A stretch of DNA of 64,000 bases from Thermoplasmata archaeon. GTDB lineage: Archaea > Thermoplasmatota > Thermoplasmata > Thermoplasmatales > GCA-001856825. The position numbers and the translations under genes are program-made. The stretch lies in assembly GCA_021792255.1 (NCBI GenBank), contig JAJYUZ010000003.1, positions 128,001-192,000 on the forward strand. Reading direction: 5' to 3'. Below are positions 53,752 to 64,000 of the stretch, one piece after another; the first letter of the stretch is position 1; each line of letters opens with the position of its first letter. The notes under the pieces were generated by a model that worked only from the letters and a program-made list of their open reading frames with translations, was not told where the DNA came from and searched no databases.

Positions 53752-54879
53752 TTGTCTCACGTGCGCTCTCCTGCTGAACGCATTATTCCTATCTTCTTCA
53801 TATCAGTCGGAGCGCTAGCGGTTGCTCTCTTATTTTATTATCAGATACTTGAATATGCATCTATCGGAGTAATCAATCTAGGCAGTTACTTTCTTTATGA
53901 GGGAATTTTTCTGCTGGCTCTGGTCCCAATTACGATTCCAGTACTTCATTTTTTTAGAGAACGTTCAACAGAGGATTATGACGAGCCATCACCCAGGAAA
54001 TTCTTGAGAAAGTCGTTTGGCATTTTGTGGATTTTTGATGGTATACTTCAAATGCAACTTCCCTTTCTTACTCTCTTCGTCCAATATAACTTGATCCCTC
54101 TTCTAGGATCTGAACCAATAGTGACATTCCTTACTGGACACGCAATCACTCTTTGGAACGTTAACCCCCCACTAATGGACGTTATTGCATCCCTCTTACA
54201 GGTATATCTTGGTATATTTTTCCTGACCTACAAGAGGGGGTTCGTTTTCAGGCTTGCCCAGGTATCTGCAATCTCTTGGAGTCTGGTTATTTGGATGTTC
54301 GCGGAAGGACTTGGCGGCATTCTATCTCCAAGCGCAACATTGCTCACCGGTTCCCCGGGCTCTGCTCTTTTTTACGCAATTGCTTCGTTCCTCTTGCTGA
54401 TATATGAACAAGAATCTTCATCAGGAAGGGCCCGCACAGTGACGAGGGTGACAATGAGCGTCACTTTCTTAGGATTTGCCATTTCTCAAATCTTGCCGTC
54501 CAATGGATTCTGGGCTGCTCTTCCGATTTCATCCTTTCCGTCTCCGTTTGCATTACTGAACAACCTGACATTCATCACCTTGCTCATAAGTCAGCACGCC
54601 TCCATTTTGAATGCCGTATACGTTCTTGTGATGTTCGCAATAGGCGTCTCTTGGCTTGTGCTTCCCCGGTTCGCTGGTTTTCCAACGTTGTTGTGGGGCT
54701 TCTTCACTTGGTACATTTATCAGGGATTCGGTATCTTTGGCATGACCAGTAGCACTGACCCGAACACTGGCTTGCCACTAATATTTATTTCTTTGACCTT
54801 CCTTCTAATTACCAGGTCGACTGATGTCATTCAAAATTACAAATTTGCTTTCTACCGTAGAAAAAAGAGCTTGGTGTAG
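53752..54879 (+). CDS. hypothetical polytopic membrane protein
   Basis: About 9-10 TM helices; motifs LWIFDGILQ.Q, W..AEGLGGI...TG.PG.A..Y and STDPNTG. Confidence 0.7.
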   Translation: MSHVRSPAERIIPIFFISVGALAVALLFYYQILEYASIGVINLGSYFLYEGIFLLALVPITIPVLHFFRERSTEDYDEPSPRKFLRKSFGILWIFDGILQMQLPFLTLFVQYNLIPLLGSEPIVTFLTGHAITLWNVNPPLMDVIASLLQVYLGIFFLTYKRGFVFRLAQVSAISWSLVIWMFAEGLGGILSPSATLLTGSPGSALFYAIASFLLLIYEQESSSGRARTVTRVTMSVTFLGFAISQILPSNGFWAALPISSFPSPFALLNNLTFITLLISQHASILNAVYVLVMFAIGVSWLVLPRFAGFPTLLWGFFTWYIYQGFGIFGMTSSTDPNTGLPLIFISLTFLLITRSTDVIQNYKFAFYRRKKSLV

Positions 54880-55130: not shown

Positions 55131-56624
55131 ATGACCTATCAAATGTTTGTTAACGGGGAGTGGAAAGATTCCTCGGATGAACAGAAGATCTCGGTTATAA
55201 ATCCTGCGACTGGATCAATAATTGCTGAAGTCCCAAGCGCCAGTTCAGAGGATGTTGCACTCGCAGCTGAATCTGCGAAAGAATCTTTCTTTGAAGGTAC
55301 TTGGAGCAGAATTAGTCCTGGTGAAAGGGCGACCGTTCTCCTCAAAGTAGCACAAATAATGGAAGACAGGACGCAGGAGCTGGCGAAGCTGGAAACTCAG
55401 ATATCCGGTAAATCTATCAAACAGTCATCGGGGTACGATCTGCCATACACGGTAGACAACGTTAGATTCATCGCTGGAGCTGCGAGAATTCTCGAAGGAA
55501 AGGCGATGGGTGAATATGTACAGGATGGCACAAGTGCAATCAGGAGAGAGCCTATCGGTGTGGTAGGAGTGATAACACCATGGAACTATCCGCTGATGAT
55601 GGTCGTTTGGCGGGCATTTCCCGCTCTCGCGATGGGAAACAGCGTGGTGGTAAAACCCGCAAGCTACACTCCTTTGACGACCCTTGAACTTGCAAAAATT
55701 ATGGAAAAGGCCGGCGTTCCCAAGGGTGTTTTCAATGTTATCACAGGACCTGGGGGAAAGGTAGGAGAAGAACTAGCTGGAAACAAGAACATAGACATGA
55801 TCGCGTTTACGGGAAGCACAGAGGTTGGCAAGAGACTATCAGAACTCGGATCTTCCACTCTCAAGAAAGTTTCTCTTGAGCTTGGTGGTAAGGCTCCTTT
55901 CATCGTTTTTAGAGATGCGGACCTTGATGCTGCGACAGAGGGTGCTGTAGTCGGTGGCCTTGTCAACAATGGCCAGGATTGTGCAAACGCTACCAGATAT
56001 TATGTGCACGAATCCGTAAAGGACAAGTTTGTCGATCTTCTATTAAAAAAGCTTAAGAAAGTCAAAGTTGGAGATCCTACTGACCCCAGTACTGACATTG
56101 GACCGCTCATATCCAGCTCACACAGGGACAGAGTCGAGGGGTATATCGAGAGGGGAGTGAAACAGGGAGGAAAACTTCTGGAAGGAGGTAGTAGACCCAA
56201 ACTGAAAGGAATGGAGAATGGATTCTTCCTCAATCCGACGGTGATCTATACTGAAAACCAGAAATCTGACATTGTTCAGGAAGAAATATTCGGTCCCGTT
56301 TTCAGTGTGCTTCCGTTTTCGACGTACGATGAAGCAATCGCCAATAGCAATGACGTGGTCTATGGACTGGGTGCCTCGGTCTGGACGAAGGACGTCACAA
56401 CGTCGATGAGAGCGGTAAGGGACCTGAGATTTGGGACCGTGTGGGTCAACGAACACATTCCAGTACCATCAGAGATGCCATGGGCGGGTTATAAACAGAG
56501 TGGCCACGGTGCCTCTCTTTCGCCCTACAGCCTAGAGGAATTCACTTACATCAAGCACGTTTATTTTGATCTGACGGGCGGAGTAAGAAAGAGCTGGTAC
56601 TACCAGATTTATGGAGGGCAGTAG
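55131..56624 (+). CDS. aminoaldehyde dehydrogenase (aminobutyraldehyde/betaine-aldehyde type)
   Basis: Motifs PWNYP, FTGST, ELGGKAP, GQDC..ATR and EMP..GYKQSG. Confidence 0.88.
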   Translation: MTYQMFVNGEWKDSSDEQKISVINPATGSIIAEVPSASSEDVALAAESAKESFFEGTWSRISPGERATVLLKVAQIMEDRTQELAKLETQISGKSIKQSSGYDLPYTVDNVRFIAGAARILEGKAMGEYVQDGTSAIRREPIGVVGVITPWNYPLMMVVWRAFPALAMGNSVVVKPASYTPLTTLELAKIMEKAGVPKGVFNVITGPGGKVGEELAGNKNIDMIAFTGSTEVGKRLSELGSSTLKKVSLELGGKAPFIVFRDADLDAATEGAVVGGLVNNGQDCANATRYYVHESVKDKFVDLLLKKLKKVKVGDPTDPSTDIGPLISSSHRDRVEGYIERGVKQGGKLLEGGSRPKLKGMENGFFLNPTVIYTENQKSDIVQEEIFGPVFSVLPFSTYDEAIANSNDVVYGLGASVWTKDVTTSMRAVRDLRFGTVWVNEHIPVPSEMPWAGYKQSGHGASLSPYSLEEFTYIKHVYFDLTGGVRKSWYYQIYGGQ

Positions 56625-56633
56625 GTGATCAAA

Positions 56634-57917
56634 ATGAACTCTGATGGATATAATCCTTTGAAAGTGAATACAAACCTGGACTTCGGAAACCCATCGAGAG
56701 TAGTTTTTGGATTGGGTGCTGCGTACAACAGTTTGCCAGGACTCATAAAGGAGCTCAACCCGAAAAAAACCGTCCTGGTGAGCGATGAAATAGTTTCCAA
56801 GACAGGTGCTCTGGAAAAAATAGAATCGTCTCTCAAGGCGGCGGATTTGAAATTTGAGGAGCTGCTGATCCCGGTCGGCGAGCCGACGACAGAGATGACA
56901 AGAGACCTTGTAGATAGAGCCCGTAAAGATAGACCAGAGATGTACGTAGGGATAGGTGGAGGAAGCGTACTTGATATGACAAAGTTGATGTCGATAATGG
57001 TGACAAATCACGGAGAGCCAAAGAATTATTACGCACTACCTCCGGATCCCTGGTCCGATAAAGTTACCAACGTCGGAGTAAGGAAAATTCTAATTTCGAC
57101 TACCGCAGGTACAGGCAGTGAGACCTCTAACACTCTTGTAGTGACAGAAGGTGGTTACAAAACGTGGATAACGAGTTCAAAGGTCACTGCAAACGTATCG
57201 CTCATCGATCCATCGTTGACTTTTACCTTGCCCCCGGTCGCTACGAGAAACACTGGAATGGATGCACTAAGCCACTTGATCGAGGGAGTGCTGACAAACA
57301 TGCCAAACCCCGTATCAGATGGAATGATCCAACAGGGAGTCCATCTAGTTTCCAAGTATCTCGTTAGGGCATACAACAACGGAAATGATGAAGAAGCGAG
57401 AGTGAACATGTCTTTTGCCGCGATGATGGGAGGCTGGGTGATTGCGTTCCCATGGGTCGGTGGCCCCGCAACTATTGGGCACTGCATGTCAGAGGCTCTG
57501 GGTCCGAAATTTGGTATCCCCCATGGATTCGCGTGCGCGATAATGTTGCCTCACGCTATGGACTTTAACCTTCCACTGGTCGCGCCTAGACTCAGATCAG
57601 TCGCAGAAGCGTTTGGGGTGGATACGTACGGACTTTCTGATATAGAAGCTGCCTCCGAAGCCATAAATTCCGTAGTATCACTAATGAAGAGTCTGGAGAT
57701 GCCAGTTGCCCTGAAGAATGCTTCTAAATTCAAAAAGGACAGGCTTGCAGAGATGTTCGATTATGTGCTGAACGAAAGGCAGTACATTTACAACCTCCCT
57801 GTCTACAATCCGAGGAGACTGACCAGAGAGAATTTGTCAGAATTGTTTGATGATGTCTGGGAGGGCAAGTTCACCACGGCTTCAAAGCTGGCAGAGGGTA
57901 GCGTGAAAACTTTTTAA
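56634..57917 (+). CDS. iron-containing (type III) alcohol dehydrogenase
   Basis: Motifs GGGSVLD, TTAGTGSE, DALSH..E and GH.....LG....PHG. ATG 56634 follows GGTGA. Confidence 0.9.
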   Translation: MNSDGYNPLKVNTNLDFGNPSRVVFGLGAAYNSLPGLIKELNPKKTVLVSDEIVSKTGALEKIESSLKAADLKFEELLIPVGEPTTEMTRDLVDRARKDRPEMYVGIGGGSVLDMTKLMSIMVTNHGEPKNYYALPPDPWSDKVTNVGVRKILISTTAGTGSETSNTLVVTEGGYKTWITSSKVTANVSLIDPSLTFTLPPVATRNTGMDALSHLIEGVLTNMPNPVSDGMIQQGVHLVSKYLVRAYNNGNDEEARVNMSFAAMMGGWVIAFPWVGGPATIGHCMSEALGPKFGIPHGFACAIMLPHAMDFNLPLVAPRLRSVAEAFGVDTYGLSDIEAASEAINSVVSLMKSLEMPVALKNASKFKKDRLAEMFDYVLNERQYIYNLPVYNPRRLTRENLSELFDDVWEGKFTTASKLAEGSVKTF

Positions 57918-58088: not shown

Positions 58089-58426
58089 GATGTTCTGAAG
58101 CTTATTTCTGCCTATTTTAGTCTAAATACCTCGAGCATTTGAAACGCACCTTAATATCGATACTGAAACTAATGCTAGATCAAGACAATCGGAGTACATA
58201 AAAAAAACCAATATTATTTTTTCAAGGAAATAGAGTCGTCTGTATCTTGTGCTTTTATTTGCGATCCAGTCAGTGGCTCTACAAATTGGGCTTGTGTTCC
58301 AAGACGTCACTTATCTAATTGATCGATATTCTTAGTTTGCAGTATACTTGTAGATAGCAAGAATGAAAAGTAAGAATAAGGGGTTGGTTCAATTAACATT
58401 TAATATTAAAAAATCCCTATGCTATT

Positions 58427-59770
58427 GTGTATAGAATCGGCATAGAAGAACACGATAGCACCTTCTATGCGATAGTTCTGACAAATAATGACAAAGTTCT
58501 ATGGAAGGGAAAAAACAAAGATCTGACTGAACTTCTGAACCTTCTCGACGAAAGTGAAGCGCTGAAAGGGCATGATATCGAGTATGCAGCATTTTCAACC
58601 GATATTGTAAACAGCATTTCTCCAGTTATGAAAAGAACTTCCCCCATTGTTCTGATAAAAGTGGGAGGATCCAAAGATAACTTTTCTTATGTGTCTACAG
58701 AGAGGAATTCTCGCCCCTTCAAGGGATTGGAAATTCATAATTACTTTATTAAGGGTGCAATGAAACCATATGGAGAAGAAGAATCGCCTTTAGATTCCAA
58801 GGAAATCAAAAAAATAGCCAAAATACTCAACGAAGACAAAAGTGTTAAGGGAGTTGGGATCATAGGTCAATTCTCAAACTTTTTACCTCAGCATGAAGAA
58901 AAGATCGCAAGAGAGCTGAATAAGACTATTGAGAGAAAGATTTCAATTTGTTTGTCCTCATTGGTGTCCCACAGGAGCCTGGTGTACAGGGAAAGACTCC
59001 TCGTTATGAACCTAATTTTGGCAATTTCAGCCAGTCAGCATCTGATATTCATAGCAGAAAAGTTGAAAGAGTACCTAGGGCGTTCAAGACTCTATTTCTT
59101 AGGTTCTGATGGTTCACTAGTGCCAAACGAGACGGCACTTAATTACCCAGTGCTGCTGAATGGGTCGTCATACGTGTCGAAAATTGTTGGGCTTGGTGCA
59201 ACCACTGATTTGAAAGACCTCAACTTGATTACCAAGCTCGGAAAGAAGATTGTCCTCATGTCGTCATTCGATGGCGAGCCAGTATTAAAGAGGAAGGAGG
59301 ATACCTTTAAGAAAGGAATCAACGTTTTTTCTTCTGGAGTCATGAGACCGCTGAGTGGCAGATCAGAAGAGATTGAGCTCGTAATAAGAAATCTTAAAAA
59401 GAAAGATGAAACAACTACCGTGATAGACAAGAGTATCTTTCAAGAGTACCCCAAGCTTAATACCTGCGGTGCCAGATTGCAAAAGGTAGACGGATACCTA
59501 GGGGCTATGGGAGCAGTCTCAGCACCAATAAGGTTGACAATGGATTTCCTAGGCTCTATCCAGTTCAGTGGGAGGAAAGAAATATTGGAATCCTTCAAGA
59601 ACATTGTCAGGGAAAAAATCATAGAGGTGGGAGCAAAAACTGAGTCGGTAAGAGTCGTTCAAGTGGAAGAGATCCCTCTAAGTTATTTACCATGGGATAG
59701 CCTAAGAATCAGGATTTCAGTTGAAGGAAGACCGGGAGGCAGCCCCACATCTGGAGGCAAGCGGAAGTGA
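58427..59770 (+). CDS. degenerate hydantoinase/oxoprolinase (HyuA-like) protein lacking ATP-binding motifs
   Basis: Retains RIGI, G.E..PLD..EI, FS...P.HE, S......RE....N, DGSL, P, GA.GA and the C-terminal VEEIPLSYLP. Both DxGGT motifs are absent. Confidence 0.72.
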   Translation: MYRIGIEEHDSTFYAIVLTNNDKVLWKGKNKDLTELLNLLDESEALKGHDIEYAAFSTDIVNSISPVMKRTSPIVLIKVGGSKDNFSYVSTERNSRPFKGLEIHNYFIKGAMKPYGEEESPLDSKEIKKIAKILNEDKSVKGVGIIGQFSNFLPQHEEKIARELNKTIERKISICLSSLVSHRSLVYRERLLVMNLILAISASQHLIFIAEKLKEYLGRSRLYFLGSDGSLVPNETALNYPVLLNGSSYVSKIVGLGATTDLKDLNLITKLGKKIVLMSSFDGEPVLKRKEDTFKKGINVFSSGVMRPLSGRSEEIELVIRNLKKKDETTTVIDKSIFQEYPKLNTCGARLQKVDGYLGAMGAVSAPIRLTMDFLGSIQFSGRKEILESFKNIVREKIIEVGAKTESVRVVQVEEIPLSYLPWDSLRIRISVEGRPGGSPTSGGKRK

Positions 59771-60269
59771 GTTTGATTTGATTGAAAGGGGAGAGACTAA
59801 ACAAGAAGAGCACCTGGACGAGATAGACATAGGCATAATTAATATCTTGCTGGAAGACGGAACCAAGAATTTGAGTCAAATTGCCTCTGTACTTAAAGTG
59901 GGAATAGCCACCGTTCACAGAAGGCTAAGGAAACTTAGGGATGAGGGTGTTATTGAGGGTTATACCCTTCTAGTGAACCCGAAGAAGTTGGGTCTTAATG
60001 TGATTGCAATTACTTCCCTGAAAGTCGTGTCAGGCAGAGAACAAGAGATTCTCAAAGAGGTCGAAAAGATTAGAGATGTAACTGAGATATACAAGATCTC
60101 CGGCCAATTCGAGATAATCTTGAAGATAAAGGCAGGAGATCTTGGGGAACTGAACAAGATTCTAGACAGGATCAAGATAGTAAACGGAATTCAAGAGATA
60201 AACACGAGCGTGGTTCTTGAAGTCCTTCGGGATCAACCCATACACCCTATCGGTGGTGAGACCAAATGA
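59767..60269 (+). CDS. Lrp/AsnC family regulator
   Basis: Motifs LDEIDIGI, HTH ATVHRRL..L..EGVI.GY and ISGQFE. Probable GTG start overlaps the upstream TGA (GTGA). Confidence 0.88.
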
Positions 60270-61300
60270 AGATAGGAAGGAGAGAGCTCGAATCCCTCTC
60301 TTGTGGCTCGGAGATAATTGGAGGGGGAGGAGGTGGGAATACCTTTCCTGTAAGATCTGTCCTGAATTACTATCTGAGGGAAAATCATCCTCCAGTAACC
60401 ATCGGAATTGATGACATTTCAGATTCAGCATTGGTAATGGGCGTAGCCTATCTTGGCTCTACTATGGTGATTGAAGAGAGGCTTCCGCAGGGACGGAATC
60501 TTATTTCTTCAATTAAGACTCTCGAGAATTTCATAGGAGAGAAAACATCGGCAATAATTCCAATAGAGGGGGCAGGCGTGAATGCTTTAATTCCTCTCTT
60601 GGCCTCAGTAAATTCAAAAACACCAGTGATAGATGCTGACGGCATGGGACGCGCATTCCCTGAACTTTCTATGACTACATTCTCCATAAATGGAATATCT
60701 GCTTCCCCTCTCACAATTTCAGACGATCGAGGGAATGTGGTGGTTGTAGAGGAGCTTGAAGAAAAGCTGACAGAAGAAATGGTCAGAGGGATTGCTCTTA
60801 TATATGGAGGTGGCGCATGGCTAACTGCCTTTCCCATGACCGGAGCGGAAGCAAGAAAGTTCAGCATAAAAGGGACTATTTCAAGGAACATTCGGATAGG
60901 AGACGTACTCTTGGAAAACACATCACCAAAGGAGAAAATCAAGAAGTTAGAGAGAGAATTCAACGTGAGATTGGTTGGTGAGGGCTACGTAAAAGAGATC
61001 TTTAGATACAGGGAAGGAAAGTTCTCGAAGGGTGACCTGTTCATAAAATGTTATGATGACAGATTTCTAAAGGTATCTTTTCAGAACGAATACCTGATGA
61101 TCACTGAACAAGATGAAGTAATAGCCAGTGTTCCCACCATAATCACACTAATTGACGCATATACCCTCAGACCCATAAGGACTGACGAGGTTACAACGGA
61201 AGACGAAGTATTAGCTATATGTATTCCAGAGCCTGATGAACTCAGAACCAATAAAGCTCTCAACAAGGTCGGGCCGAGAGTCTTTGGATACAAAATATGA
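60266..61300 (+). CDS. DUF917 family protein (divergent paralog)
   Basis: Gly-rich GGGGGG, PIE..G.N, DADGMGRAFPE, FQNE and VGPRVFGY; ATGA overlap with the Lrp gene. Confidence 0.85.
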   Translation: MKIGRRELESLSCGSEIIGGGGGGNTFPVRSVLNYYLRENHPPVTIGIDDISDSALVMGVAYLGSTMVIEERLPQGRNLISSIKTLENFIGEKTSAIIPIEGAGVNALIPLLASVNSKTPVIDADGMGRAFPELSMTTFSINGISASPLTISDDRGNVVVVEELEEKLTEEMVRGIALIYGGGAWLTAFPMTGAEARKFSIKGTISRNIRIGDVLLENTSPKEKIKKLEREFNVRLVGEGYVKEIFRYREGKFSKGDLFIKCYDDRFLKVSFQNEYLMITEQDEVIASVPTIITLIDAYTLRPIRTDEVTTEDEVLAICIPEPDELRTNKALNKVGPRVFGYKI

Positions 61301-61444: not shown

Positions 61445-61846
61445 TTAGTCCAGAAAGTATATCTTCTTTCTCGCCACGTCAACAATCATAAACACTGCCA
61501 ACAGAGATATGACTGTCAGAAGTACCACCTGTATCGCTACTGTCGCCGCGTTATCTGCGAAGTACTTTCCGAACAACAACGACAACACCGCGGTGGTAAC
61601 GGAAAACGTAAGCCAAGAATGCTGTGCTCCAATCTTGCCAAATTTTTCAGAGCCCTCAGGACCATGCTCTTTCACAGTAGTCACCCGTACTAGTCCAAAT
61701 ACTGCAGACAGAACATTGACCAGTGCAAGTATCTCGAGCTCTATAGACGTAGCCTTGTTTGATGCGGTCAGTACTGCCACCAAAGTCACGAGGGACAGCA
61801 CTGCAAAGAGTGCCAGCGTTAAATTGACCGTCTTCTTTAGATCCAT
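61445..61846 (-). CDS. hypothetical 4-TM membrane protein
   Basis: 133 aa, hydrophobic, 2 nt downstream of the permease stop, with a GGAGG SD. Confidence 0.7.
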   Translation of the reverse strand: MDLKKTVNLTLALFAVLSLVTLVAVLTASNKATSIELEILALVNVLSAVFGLVRVTTVKEHGPEGSEKFGKIGAQHSWLTFSVTTAVLSLLFGKYFADNAATVAIQVVLLTVISLLAVFMIVDVARKKIYFLD

Positions 61847-61848
61847 GA

Positions 61849-63291
61849 CTATTCCTTCCCTCCTGAGGACTTGGGAGATTCTCCTATTGCGGCCAACAGT
61901 TTCCTATGTTCATACTCACCAAACTCATATCTAATATTCAGCGCCTTGCATACGTAAGCGATGATTATGTAGGCAACTATCCCCACAACGAATGCATTAA
62001 CGGCGGCAATACCGATGTGTAAAAATAGTCCAGTTGCAGCGCCTATCGCGAAACTTAATATGCCGTTTACGTTTATTTCAGGATACTTACCTTCCGTGGT
62101 AAATTTGTACCGGTCTTCAAATCTCCGTATCCCCTTGACGTATCTGTGAACTATATAGAAATCAGCAATGACAACACCAGCAGCTGCTGGCAGCAAATCT
62201 CCAAGCACGGTTATAAAATTCTCAAACGGAGCTATGGATGCACCGGAAGTGTATCCTATCCATGCAGCTATCCCAACTCCTATGACGCCGTTTATGATTG
62301 CAGCAGTTCCACGTTTCATCTTCCAGAGATTTACGAGCGAAAGAGAGCCCGAATAGAGGTTAACTGCGTTTATGCATAGTTGCCCGAGAATTATGATCAG
62401 GAGTACCGCTATCCCCATCCCAACGCTTAACATGGCTTCCGTAACGAGGTATGTACCAGTTACAAGAACAAGTGCCACGCCACCCAGTATGAGGAATGGA
62501 TAGATGGCAAACATGTGAGTAGTCCAAGAGACCCAAGCGATTGTGCCTGATTTCGAGAACCTCGCTAGGTCACCTGCAATGAGTGCACCCGCTATGTACA
62601 ATCCGACAGCAGCTGTAATTCCCTCCGCCATTGAATAGGGATGGAGCGGTCGGAGAGTCAATAGATTACCGCCCCCATGCACCAGAGAGAGGGCGATAAT
62701 AAAACCTACGCCAATCAACCATATGTGCTGCGGAAGCGCTATGTAAGTGAGGAACGATAGTGCCCTGTAACCTATGTACGTTGCAAGAACCATCAGTGCA
62801 CCCCCCCAGAGAGAATCAAAGACTATGTTGTGAAGCAGACCAGTTGCAAACATCTCAGACATGACTATTCCAAACAACCATGTTTCTACAGCGTACCATC
62901 CTATGCCTGTCGTGACCATTATGAGCACGACTCCAAATATTCCAGCCGGTATTCTACCAAAAGAATATCTCCAGTTCAGATAGGTGGAGCCTCCACTCTT
63001 GGCAGACATGAAACCGGTTAAGGAGCCAATTATGGCTAGTATGGTGCTTGCTGCAAACACAGCTATTACTGCACCTACAAAAGTCAGACCGTATCCAAGC
63101 GCTCCTCCTCCCCACACGACAGCAATCGCTGCGAACGAAGCATTCATCACCATGAACAGGTTGAAAAATCCTCTTCTGGATTTCCTTGGAACTTCTTTAA
63201 GTGAGAAGTCGTCAACTATGTCTCCAAGCTTGTTTTTAGAAGGATTTTTTGACATCTGCCCGGTCGGAGCGTTCTCTCCAGCCATGGTCAA
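61849..63291 (-). CDS. cytosine/purine/hydantoin permease (NCS1, CodB-like)
   Basis: Motifs DFSL..VP...R, FG..., GIGWYAV, D.ARF, NLYSGSL and GV..ADFY. Confidence 0.88.
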   Translation of the reverse strand: MTMAGENAPTGQMSKNPSKNKLGDIVDDFSLKEVPRKSRRGFFNLFMVMNASFAAIAVVWGGGALGYGLTFVGAVIAVFAASTILAIIGSLTGFMSAKSGGSTYLNWRYSFGRIPAGIFGVVLIMVTTGIGWYAVETWLFGIVMSEMFATGLLHNIVFDSLWGGALMVLATYIGYRALSFLTYIALPQHIWLIGVGFIIALSLVHGGGNLLTLRPLHPYSMAEGITAAVGLYIAGALIAGDLARFSKSGTIAWVSWTTHMFAIYPFLILGGVALVLVTGTYLVTEAMLSVGMGIAVLLIIILGQLCINAVNLYSGSLSLVNLWKMKRGTAAIINGVIGVGIAAWIGYTSGASIAPFENFITVLGDLLPAAAGVVIADFYIVHRYVKGIRRFEDRYKFTTEGKYPEINVNGILSFAIGAATGLFLHIGIAAVNAFVVGIVAYIIIAYVCKALNIRYEFGEYEHRKLLAAIGESPKSSGGKE

Positions 63292-63739
63292 CCCTCCTTT
63301 TTAGTCGTTAGAAAAAGTACTTCAGTAGGGTAAAAACTCACTGCTAACATGTTACTTCACATTTGTACGCATTCAAAGTATTTAATTTTTTCACAATTCT
63401 CACTTTTTACAAAAAAAAATATCATAGGCATAGGACTTGTATCCTGATAGTTCATTATGAATTATTCAATTATCTTAAGGACTATATGGACTGAGTCTGA
63501 TGTTTTCTCTTTTGTTTGTTATCAATCGAATTACTTTCGTAAAAAAAAAATTCTGAGAAATGGTGATAAAATGGAAAATAAGAATCTTTAATATGAGCAA
63601 GCTAATGAGAGTTCGATAGAATGAGTTATCGGTTGGCACTTGACGATAAGGATTTCTTGAGGAGATTTGTAAAATTTGCGGTGTCGTCTCATCATCTCGA
63701 GATTGATAGAAACACCCTTCCATTGGAGAGGGAATTGAC

Positions 63740-64000
63740 GTGAGAGATTTAAACGTCCAGGATTTGGAGAATCTCGAGGTGGGGGCTGGCATCCTTGGAA
63801 CCGGTGGAGGTGGGGACCCCTATATAGGAAAACTCCTCGCAAGGGAACAACTCCTAAGGGGGAAGAAAATCACACTCGTAGATCCAAAGGAGGTAGATTC
63901 TGAGTCCGAAATACTCCCAGTAGCGATGATGGGAGCTCCCGTGATTATGATCGAGAAAGTTCCAGGAGGCAAGGAAGTTGTAAAATCTCTAGAGTATTTC
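63740..64000 (+). CDS. DUF917 family protein, N-terminal part (runs off the window end)
   Basis: Not in the ORF track. From GTG 63740: MRDLNVQDLENLEVGAGILGTGGGGDPYIGKLLA...VAMMGAPVIMIEKVPGG, open to the window end. Confidence 0.85.
   Translation, partial: MRDLNVQDLENLEVGAGILGTGGGGDPYIGKLLAREQLLRGKKITLVDPKEVDSESEILPVAMMGAPVIMIEKVPGGKEVVKSLEYF

Follow-up and report, generated by a model that had tools for sequence, protein, structure and literature searches.

ATP-dependent enzymes of the HyuA/HyuB type strictly conserve three ATP-binding motifs, which sections of PMC5214803 define as PHOSPHATE 1 (DxGGTxxD), PHOSPHATE 2 (DxGGT), and the glycine-rich ADENOSINE motif; according to the same sections, both HyuA-like subunits of acetophenone carboxylase retain these motifs, and ADP was fitted in alpha'. 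The A subunits of this group (N-methylhydantoinase, 9h03 and 7hk5; caprolactamase, 6yra; 5-oxoprolinase; acetone carboxylase, 5svc; and acetophenone carboxylase, 5l9w) share their fold with ORF1, the protein studied here, but have about 700 residues compared with about 450 in ORF1. A second arrangement pairs a short HyuA-like protein with a DUF917 protein, the two being adjacent in prokaryotes and fused in eukaryotes. The original prediction had called this pair recurrent and, in agreement, all 12 long relatives that were tested (835–1007 aa) proved to be HyuA-like/DUF917 fusions; Ascomycota fusion clusters were among the nearest structures. DUF917 is the former name of S-Me-THD, the Pfam family that includes thiohydantoin desulfurase and S-methyl thiohydantoin desulfurase as well as ORF3 of our locus. 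Our literature search returned no paper on thiohydantoin desulfurase, none relevant for S-Me-THD by title or abstract, no mention of DUF917 in the titles or abstracts of the listed papers, and no work joining hydantoinase with pseudoenzyme.

Other ASKHA proteins act without catalysis. The ROK repressors Mlc and NagC carry an ASKHA kinase fold without kinase activity as a sugar sensor on a winged helix-turn-helix (wHTH), and TsaB/YeaZ is an ASKHA protein that serves as the noncatalytic partner of its active paralog TsaD. These belong to ASKHA families other than that of ORF1, and the likeness is one of general description; the matches of the ORF1 model to ROK kinases in Foldseek were weak (E about 5e-4). 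Archaeal Lrp/AsnC (feast/famine) regulators combine a full-length wHTH with a RAM domain, as does the middle gene of our locus which, unlike typical members, is embedded between two enzyme-type genes.

Organization of the locus

The window, a 64,000-nucleotide stretch of archaeal DNA, contains three ORFs on the forward strand: ORF1 (58427–59770, 447 aa), a short HyuA-like protein; an Lrp/AsnC-family regulator (59721 or 59778 to 60269); and ORF3 (60266–61300, 344 aa), a DUF917/S-Me-THD-like protein. The three genes named in the original prediction are real. Like the short HyuA-like/DUF917 pair, this triplet unites the same two families in tight packing with an NCS1 permease nearby. It differs from the canonical pair in that its HyuA-like protein lacks the three motifs and an insert of about 70 residues, and in that a transcription factor gene lies between the partners.

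A TATA-like box, TTTAATATTAAA (58399–58410, forward strand), is located 17 to 28 nt upstream of the GTG start of ORF1. A word comparison identified TTTAATA as the sole 7-mer common to the three ORF1-upstream regions available. From what is generally known of archaeal promoters, TTTAATATTAAA is a likely candidate for the promoter of a leaderless or nearly leaderless triplet transcript. A search for an operator found no word of 7 to 9 nt common to the three ORF1-upstream and three divergent intergenic regions.

Read from TTG 59721, where its frame opens, the Lrp would have 182 aa and overlap ORF1 by 50 nt, but the start is probably TTG 59778, which lies 7 nt past the ORF1 stop, downstream of the Shine-Dalgarno-like GGAAGTGA, and gives a protein of 163 aa that reproduces the N-terminal length of the Lrp orthologs. 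The ORF1–Lrp coupling through a GTGA overlap that had been proposed does not hold: these letters are present at 59767–59770, but their GTG is in neither the ORF1 nor the Lrp frame, and translation from 59767 meets 20 stops. The ATGA overlap between Lrp and ORF3 (60266–60269) is real and recurs in both other loci described below.

Beyond the triplet, two convergent genes occupy the reverse strand. The first encodes a small membrane protein of 133 aa (61445–61846), located 3' of the permease gene, with no Pfam family above cut-off and 50 to 55% identity between species. The second encodes an NCS1-type permease of 480 aa (61849–63291; Transp_cyt_pur, 66.6 bits), which is 81 to 84% identical between species and scores 190 bits against the NCBIfam cytosine permease model, below its cut-off of 326. 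On the forward strand, a canonical DUF917 gene (358 aa), with the GTGGGGDP and MMGAP..EK motifs, starts at 63740, and its first part fills the window up to 64000. It is the first gene of a DUF917/HyuA-like/DUF917 operon that extends past the window (L004, 5740–9430), 2.4 kb downstream of the triplet in the same genome, and whose 516-aa HyuA-like protein has intact motifs.

The triplet is co-inherited

Orthologs of ORF1, Lrp, and ORF3 occur in identical order in all three loci (the source genome, G008, and L015), and synteny across the three species extends to the small membrane protein and the NCS1 permease. The gap between ORF1 and Lrp is 3 to 16 nt across these loci. We did not find the triplet in 400 further genomes of this phylum. 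Distribution is equally narrow for all three orthologue groups, and the ORF1 orthologs, the five Lrp orthologs, and the four closest ORF3 orthologs appear to lie on common contigs. The locus was present in 10 DNA runs from three studies, comprising mine-drainage, tailings, and sediment metagenomes; no RNA run was listed among the datasets containing it. On our best reading, the three genes form an operon that is specific to one lineage, a few acid-mine Thermoplasmata, and is inherited there as a unit. The conservation that the original prediction proposed to test is seen in two other species.

ORF1 is a full-length HyuA-type protein without a recognizable nucleotide site

ORF1 matched Pfam Hydant_A_N (PF05378) with 28.5 bits (cut-off, 25.2) over residues 72 to 167 only, and its score against Hydantoinase_A (PF01968), 12.6 bits, fell below the cut-off of 22.9; the canonical 516-aa paralog scored 67.3 bits against the latter. 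The AlphaFold2 (AF2) model of ORF1 is confident (pLDDT, 90.3; pTM, 0.90), and Foldseek returned HyuA/HyuB-type enzymes with E values from 2.5e-19 to 1e-14 and TMq of 0.57 to 0.67. The best of them was the N-methylhydantoinase 9h03_A (E 2.5e-19, TMq 0.67), and further matches included caprolactamase (6yra_A), acetophenone carboxylase (Apc; 5l9w_B), and acetone carboxylase (5svc_B). A profile search with ORF1 likewise found N-methylhydantoinase (8.9e-10). The full-length HyuA-type scaffold that had been proposed is therefore supported by both the model and its structural matches.

The ATP site has been lost. In the alignment with the canonical 516-aa paralog, PHOSPHATE 1 reads IGIDVGSTNTDG in the paralog and IGIEEHDSTFYA in ORF1; PHOSPHATE 2 reads DVGGATT and TKLGKKI, respectively (aligned ORF1 segment, NLITKLGKKIVLM); and ADENOSINE reads VGGGA and VIDKS (aligned ORF1 segment, TTVIDKSIFQ). 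The letters quoted in the original prediction, including NGS and the C-terminal VEEIPLSYLP, are present, and to the loss of both phosphate motifs that it noted we can add the loss of ADENOSINE. All three motifs are absent from ORF1 and from the five orthologs examined, and the insert of about 70 residues is missing from every one of them, whereas the invariant columns beyond the ATP site (E157, R188, P241, G255, and G362) are retained. As judged from its sequence and predicted fold, ORF1 is thus related over its full length to the short HyuA-type ASKHA proteins but has no recognizable nucleotide site. A HyuB partner (PF02538) gave no match in the source genome, which is 93.55% complete; the single PF02538 match in G008 lies beside a 714-aa HyuA on another contig than the triplet.

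Conservation of the gene argues against decay. Frames of similar length are open in the source genome, G008, L015, P0003, and P0004; the five orthologs have 439 to 450 aa and 41 to 46% identity, and adding P0005 (25% identity) to the alignment still leaves 55 invariant columns. The dN of ORF1 is 0.46 to 0.56, the highest in the cluster, exceeding that of Lrp and ORF3 2-fold and that of NCS1 and M20 4-fold. Estimates of dS are at least 1.8 throughout and saturated in each of the 20 pairwise comparisons; omega therefore has only an upper bound, which places that of ORF1 below about 0.3. The dN/dS of the gene is thus below 1, the point that the original prediction asked to have checked, and we conclude from these sequence comparisons that ORF1 is under purifying selection. 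That it is a functionless relic heading for loss is hardly credible and already conflicts with these data: its rapid evolution and marginal Pfam signal (the G008 ortholog, at 18.3 bits, falls below the Hydant_A_N cut-off) would fit, but the frames stay open at the same length, the invariant columns persist, the fold prediction is confident, and dN stays far under the saturated dS. Maintained by selection without a nucleotide site, ORF1 qualifies as a pseudoenzyme under the sequence-based definition in parts of PMC10211241, namely a protein in which the catalytic motifs of the family are missing while the gene is maintained.

The original prediction had derived ORF1 and ORF3 from a duplicated enzyme pair. 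This origin is not supported, as the ORF1 clade lies far from the canonical HyuA-like gene of the genome in the tree, and the G008 and L015 clusters have no canonical short HyuA-like gene; there, the only short HyuA-like gene is the one for the degenerate protein, which is accompanied by three DUF917 genes. The tree and the identities (22%) also rule out ORF1 as a recent duplicate of the neighboring canonical HyuA-like gene.

Motif loss and domain fusion in the wider family

Among the 95 family members examined, 47 retained all three ATP motifs, while 32 had lost the ATP site, with at least five independent origins. Motif-less short HyuA-like proteins may represent an unrecognized ASKHA pseudoenzyme class with a regulatory or scaffolding role. 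When 401 genomes of the phylum were searched with a profile built from P0054, P0018, and P0040, which represent other motif-less clades, every match was a canonical or long form of HyuA.

One relative, P0052, is a fusion of a GntR domain (56.9 bits) to a HyuA-like module (Hydant_A_N, 109.5 bits; Hydantoinase_A, 57.5 bits), which demonstrates that a HyuA-like module can couple directly to a DNA-binding domain. As in the triplet, a short HyuA-like module is joined to a DNA-binding domain, but in P0052 the two are fused rather than encoded by separate genes, and the regulator is GntR rather than Lrp. The motifs of P0052 are near-canonical (DVGGSSTD, DAGGS, and VGGGA), so P0052 is not itself a pseudoenzyme; by analogy, it offers the closest parallel to a regulator with a HyuA-like sensor. 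An Atlas search with P0052 found no cluster of at least 50 members having GntR and HyuA.

ORF3 is a divergent DUF917 protein with a conserved core

ORF3 contains both domains of its family, S-Me-THD_N (159.7 bits) and S-Me-THD_C (136.7 bits; cut-off, 27), with scores inside the spread shown by the other six DUF917 proteins in these clusters, and its AF2 model (pLDDT, 93.6) has the 2o3i fold (2o3i_A; E 8.7e-24, TMq 0.84). It retains 35 of the 39 columns conserved in at least 97% of 119 other family members, including GGGGG, ExGGxN, DxDGMGRAFPE, R174, R247, and QNE; the four misses are L18I, P66T, D291T, and G312E. At the columns conserved in at least 85%, it matches 57 of 79; for the other sequences, the median is 77 and the 5th percentile 64. 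Its clade ranks with the more divergent of the sampled DUF917 proteins, with replacements at E78, K241, G252, D291, Y311, G312, and R314, and it evolves faster than its neighbors: between G008 and L015, ORF3 is 67% identical, compared with 81% and 76% for the other two DUF917 genes. The altered motifs quoted in the original prediction, GGGGGGNT and LGST..ER, are thus present, but the strong degeneration read from them is not borne out by the conserved columns or the normal Pfam scores. With nearly all of the near-invariant columns and the core motifs of the family retained, the label "dead" is unsupported for ORF3, which we predict from its sequence is most likely still an enzyme. Its scores against thiohydantoin desulfurase (NF058529; 65.4 bits, cut-off 440) and S-methyl thiohydantoin desulfurase (NF058532; 62.3 bits, cut-off 450) are so far below the cut-offs that it is not an ortholog of either.

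The middle gene encodes a complete Lrp/AsnC regulator

The Lrp has an N-terminal wHTH (HTH_24, 41.9 bits; HTH_AsnC-type, 36.1 bits) and a complete C-terminal RAM domain (AsnC_trans_reg, 49.8 bits), all over cut-off. It is one of nine AsnC_trans_reg matches in the genome and falls below every NCBIfam equivalog cut-off (best score, 84.9 bits against 190). Its only five orthologs (163–168 aa, 66–70% identity) share an invariant recognition helix, VGIATVHRRL, and the gene was encountered only together with the triplet.

Discussion

The explanation we prefer, with a probability that we judge to be about even, is that ORF1 is a noncatalytic partner of DUF917 and that the Lrp is an operon-embedded regulator. 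What the analysis establishes is the gene content, fold, motif loss, selection, synteny, and narrow distribution. The ancestor of ORF1 would have been a short HyuA-type ATPase of the kind that normally partners DUF917 proteins; nucleotide binding would since have been lost, with the fold and the family's non-ATP motifs kept. We infer that it contacts a DUF917 protein, ORF3 and perhaps the others of the cluster, on which it would most likely sit as a noncatalytic scaffold, substrate-binding, or modulating subunit. ORF3 would most likely act on a small cyclic amide or ureide imported by the neighboring NCS1 permease. The Lrp, made from the same transcript as the rest of the triplet, would act on its presumed targets as the cluster's own transcription factor, answering a small amino-acid-like ligand through its RAM domain.

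The main alternative, close to what was originally proposed, is that ORF1, with or without ORF3, is a ligand sensor that binds the pathway substrate and controls the co-expressed Lrp by protein contact. We consider this unlikely, although several features of the locus would suit it: ORF1 has lost its ATP site but conserved its fold and frame, lrp separates the two partners in every locus with the same overlap and short gaps, and the three orthologue groups are equally narrow with few Lrp orthologs. Sensing by an ASKHA kinase fold also has a textbook precedent in the ROK repressors. The placing of a regulator gene between enzyme-type genes, with a 4-nt overlap that is conserved (an arrangement unusual for a plain local regulator), the divergence and faster evolution of the ORF3 clade relative to the other two DUF917 genes, and the existence of the GntR–HyuA-like fusion P0052 also fit a sensor and pull against the explanation we prefer. 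On the other side, the Lrp, with a RAM ligand domain of its own, requires no protein sensor, ORF3 retains nearly all family-invariant residues, P0052 has near-intact motifs, and the Atlas search brought up no cluster of at least 50 members with GntR and HyuA. A complex prediction of ORF1, ORF3, and Lrp, with Lrp as the partner and run without controls, gave scores of 0.00 and 0.01 against a mark of 0.32, values that weigh neither for nor against contact. To our knowledge, no Lrp under the control of an enzyme-like partner has been described. Were the alternative correct, and we give it a small chance, the triplet would be an unfused, enzyme-derived archaeal Lrp sensor for an imported cyclic amide, the split counterpart of the rare GntR–HyuA-like fusions.

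That ORF1 is still catalytic or nucleotide-binding, through moved residues or through ATP-independent chemistry in the ASKHA cleft, seems decidedly improbable. The acidic pair of IGIEE occupies the PHOSPHATE 1 position in all five close orthologs, the RE...N, DG[ST]L, and C-terminal motifs of active family members are retained, and parts of PMC10211241 describe pseudoenzymes in which catalytic residues have migrated. Yet the EE pair is not kept in P0005, the next relative; all three loops are replaced by nonglycine, nonconserved residues that differ between orthologs; the conserved GGGS/GG..T.TD insert is deleted; and the dN of ORF1 is the highest in the cluster.

Should the Lrp prove to be controlled by the pseudoenzyme, this would be a new route by which a metabolic signal reaches a factor of the Lrp type; we found no description of such a mechanism in the literature searched, and none is known to us. 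The recurrence of motif loss in several branches means that "hydantoinase/oxoprolinase" annotations overstate the chemistry of these proteins. Pairs of a short HyuA-like protein and DUF917 occur widely, from bacteria to fungi, and are uncharacterized in substrate and mechanism, and a conserved, naturally ATP-site-less version of the HyuA-like protein provides a handle on them. That such a protein is the sole short HyuA-like partner next to the DUF917 genes in two species suggests that the HyuA-like protein has a role for DUF917 that does not involve ATP hydrolysis.

Gene layout of the triplet

ORF calling placed three ORFs on one strand within positions 58427-61300. The first, ORF1 (58427-59770, +), encodes a HyuA-like protein of 447 aa; the second (+) encodes an Lrp-type protein with HTH_24/HTH_AsnC and AsnC_trans_reg domains; and the third, ORF3 (60266-61300, +), encodes a 344-aa protein with S-Me-THD_N and S-Me-THD_C domains (formerly DUF917). 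The motif strings quoted in the original prediction were all found in the sequence, which also confirms that the Lrp stop and the ORF3 start overlap in ATGA. The GTGA at 59767-59770, which had been taken as a second coupling signal, has its GTG in the third frame, and translation from 59767 runs into 20 stops. Although the open frame of Lrp extends back to TTG 59721, translation more likely begins at TTG 59778, since this codon lies 7 nt past the ORF1 stop, is preceded by a GGAAGTGA stretch and gives a 163-aa product that matches the N-terminal length of the 163-168-aa orthologues.

Upstream, separated from ORF1 by approximately 500 nt of AT-rich noncoding DNA (GC 0.37-0.41), an aldehyde dehydrogenase gene (Aldedh 565 bits) is followed with zero spacer by an iron-containing alcohol dehydrogenase gene (Fe-ADH and ADH_Fe_C; the pair spans 55131-57917, +). 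A 375-aa ORF at 53752-54879 (+) has the appearance of a polytopic membrane protein and had no Pfam family at E ≤ 1e-4.

ORF1 has a HyuA-type scaffold without the nucleotide site

The Pfam match of ORF1 to Hydant_A_N is barely above the cut-off (28.5 versus 25.2 bits), that to Hydantoinase_A is below it (12.6 versus 22.9 bits), and an NCBIfam search returned no match. The single paralogue of ORF1 in the genome is a 516-aa short HyuA-like protein encoded just past the end of the window; homology to it spans the whole of ORF1, at 22% identity. According to PMC5214803, from which we took the definitions of the PHOSPHATE 1, PHOSPHATE 2, and ADENOSINE motifs, all three are strictly conserved in the A subunits of acetophenone carboxylase, acetone carboxylase, and hydantoinase. 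The canonical paralogue reads IGIDVGSTNTDG, VVFDVGGATTNVG, and LVTVGGGAFM at these three sites, and the aligned ORF1 residues are IGIEEHDSTFYA, NLITKLGKKIVLM, and TTVIDKSIFQ, in agreement with the predicted loss of the phosphate-binding motifs. A conserved insert of approximately 70 residues is also missing from ORF1. Its AlphaFold2 model (85-row alignment; pLDDT 90.3, pTM 0.90) best matched N-methylhydantoinase in the PDB (9h03_A, E 2.5e-19, TMq 0.67), and acetone and acetophenone carboxylase subunits and caprolactamase were the other top matches. No HyuB was found in this genome.

ORF1 is rare. In a word-indexed search covering 5.8 billion proteins, ORF1 had just three relatives other than itself (43-46% identity, 439-450 aa), and an exhaustive search of 1.84 billion representatives gave 206 matches at E ≤ 0.001, just four of them at E ≤ 1e-30. 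Among 59 related genomes, the sole carrier of an ORF1 orthologue was G008, a member of the same genus, with an open 451-aa frame at 41% identity. None was found at E ≤ 1e-15 in 400 further genomes across the phylum; a scan of genome contigs yielded nothing beyond G008, and a scan of metagenomes added one full-length locus, L015. Among the three species, ORF1 has the highest dN of the cluster (0.46-0.56), compared with 0.22-0.35 for Lrp, 0.20-0.27 for ORF3, 0.13-0.14 for an M20 amidohydrolase gene, and 0.11-0.16 for the NCS1 permease gene (ranges over methods). As dS was saturated for all genes compared, with ORF1 estimates all ≥1.8, omega for ORF1 is only bounded, at approximately 0.3 or less. 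Moreover, 55 alignment columns are invariant even when P0005, a database relative only 25% identical, is included. Selection maintains ORF1 within a very narrow group of carriers, and the gene, although the fastest-evolving of the cluster, is not neutral.

ORF3 has diverged but keeps its core motifs

ORF3 matched S-Me-THD_N with 159.7 bits and S-Me-THD_C with 136.7 bits; its summed Pfam score of 296 bits is above the scores of the G008 paralogues (262 and 289) and below those of the canonical ones in this genome (327 and 422). Against the thiohydantoin-desulfurase equivalogs of NCBIfam it scored far below the cut-off (65 versus 440 bits). The comparison set comprised 119 further members of the family, namely the best matches of the ORF3 search and the paralogues. 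ORF3 agrees at 57 of the 79 columns conserved at ≥85% (median of the others 77, 5th percentile 64), and its clade has specific replacements (E78N, K241Y/F/C, G252K, D291T/E, G312D/E, and R314E). Visible death is not apparent: 35 of the 39 columns conserved at ≥97% are kept (the misses are L18I, P66T, D291T, and G312E), as are the GGGGG loop, ExGGxN, DxDGMGRAFPE, R174, R247, and QNE. The two marker strings on which the prediction relied vary within the DUF917 family; 2o3i, the sole structure match of the ORF3 model (pLDDT 93.6), has GSGGGGTM, and the MGAP proline is present in five of the seven sequences that make up the clade, which are ORF3 itself and its six orthologue rows. Judged by sequence, ORF3 appears divergent rather than visibly dead. 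Its activity could nevertheless be altered or lost, given the clade-specific replacements and its somewhat faster evolution than other DUF917 genes. A literature search found no source for the catalytic residues of the DUF917/S-Me-THD family.

The triplet is conserved and ORF1 is an old lineage

The triplet recurs in two further loci, L013 of G008 and L015, in the same order of degenerate HyuA-like, Lrp, and 344-aa DUF917 genes, followed on the opposite strand, as here, by genes for a small membrane protein and the NCS1 permease (61849-63291, −). The Lrp/DUF917 ATGA overlap is kept across the loci, and the ORF1-Lrp gaps measure 3 to 16 nt. Database searches found only five Lrp orthologues (66-70% identity) and four close ORF3 orthologues (62-68%). 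The longest contigs listed for orthologues of ORF1, Lrp, and ORF3 coincide (6042, 2499, 5250, 5185, and 268264), from which we infer that the three are co-located.

The two enzyme-type genes of the triplet had been explained as a duplicate of an enzyme pair, an idea that gains no support here. In a FastTree phylogeny of 95 members, the ORF1 clade (support 99) joins P0005 and three other motif-less, long-branched sequences, far from the canonical paralogue of its own genome. The G008 and L015 clusters contain no canonical short HyuA-like gene; instead, each carries a further two DUF917 genes, of 376 and 349/354 aa, which are not orthologous to the 358- and 356-aa ones of this genome (25-32% identity), and the sole HyuA of G008 (714 aa) lies beside HyuB on another contig. 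The tree position therefore marks ORF1 as an old lineage of its own rather than a recent copy of the neighboring enzyme.

The canonical operon begins at window position 63740 (L004 5740-9430; G000:C7:191740-195430) and its genes, which overlap by 4 nt, encode a 358-aa DUF917 protein, a 516-aa HyuA-like protein with every ATP motif intact, and a 356-aa DUF917 protein. In its place, the G008 and L015 clusters have the two nonorthologous DUF917 genes and a nitroreductase gene. The M20 amidohydrolase gene (Peptidase_M20 and M20_dimer; 77-79% identical across species) is found immediately upstream of ORF1 in G008 (L013 5283-6473) and L015 (6698-7888). Here it is on the opposite strand (L004 11381-12571, −), approximately 10 kb downstream from the triplet, a difference that points to local rearrangement. 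A 14-mer, AATAA[GT]AATCTTTA, is shared by all three species within the divergent intergenic region (window 63577-63590, +; L013 12735-12748; L015 14685-14698), with one match in the window versus 0.01 expected. Its distance to the start of the following DUF917 gene is 150 nt here (GTG at 63740) and 22-37 nt in the other two species, these DUF917 genes not being orthologous between species. The 14-mer may be part of a promoter or operator.

Recurrent loss of the ATP site among short HyuA-like proteins

We scored the three motifs in 95 sequences: 92 of 152 collected relatives (those sampled being of 400-560 aa), the canonical paralogue, and the orthologues from G008 and L015, of which the L015 one barely differs from database relative P0002. 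All three motifs are kept in 47, two in seven, one in four, and none in 32, a share biased by the use of a motif-less query to draw the sample; five are N-terminally truncated. The clade of ORF1 accounts for seven of the 32. On the tree, the motif-less state requires eight changes, at least five of them forced by well-supported branches, although caution is needed, as FastTree is prone to joining long branches. By this tree, ATP-site loss is recurrent in the family, with at least five independent origins. Most motif-less relatives among P0005-P0152 are 430-490 aa long and also lack the ~70-aa insert. The same trend comes from a language-model search, in which the clusters nearest to ORF1 are actinobacterial, of 406-441 aa, with a Hydant_A_N match in only 26-59%.

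All 12 scanned relatives of 835-1007 aa are HyuA-like/DUF917 fusions, 11 in that order and one reversed, and Ascomycota fusion clusters are among the structures closest to ORF1. A 2715-aa relative, P0086, carries the HyuA-like module at its N-terminal start with PHOSPHATE 1 intact.

Discussion

Of the original prediction, the parts on ORF1 and on gene packing largely hold; the coupling through GTGA is wrong, and the degeneration of ORF3 was overstated. The most likely reading, which as a whole has about an even chance of being correct, is that ORF1 would serve as a noncatalytic partner of DUF917 proteins, ORF3 would still be an enzyme, acting on an imported cyclic amide, and Lrp would be the cluster's own regulator, working via its RAM domain. 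The middle gene encodes a complete Lrp/AsnC protein with a recognition helix that is invariant across orthologues; AsnC_trans_reg has nine matches in this genome, this protein included.

That ORF1 is instead a pseudoenzyme signaling to Lrp, as originally proposed, is a live alternative but an unsupported and rather improbable one. Its closest precedent is P0052 (594 aa), which joins a GntR-type HTH and an entire short HyuA-like module in one chain, the only transcription-factor fusion among 23 scanned long or odd-length relatives; however, the motifs of P0052 are nearly intact, and an Atlas search found no sizeable cluster of GntR-HyuA-like fusions. Residual catalysis by ORF1 is less likely than either reading, and plain decay is less likely still and very improbable.

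An uncharacterized HyuA-like/DUF917 pair and ASKHA pseudoenzymes in general are already known kinds, of which the triplet is a variant. Only a few acid-mine Thermoplasmata carry the system, and the mechanism put forward for it is putative; the more general lead is the recurrent loss of the ATP site across a widespread HyuA-like family.
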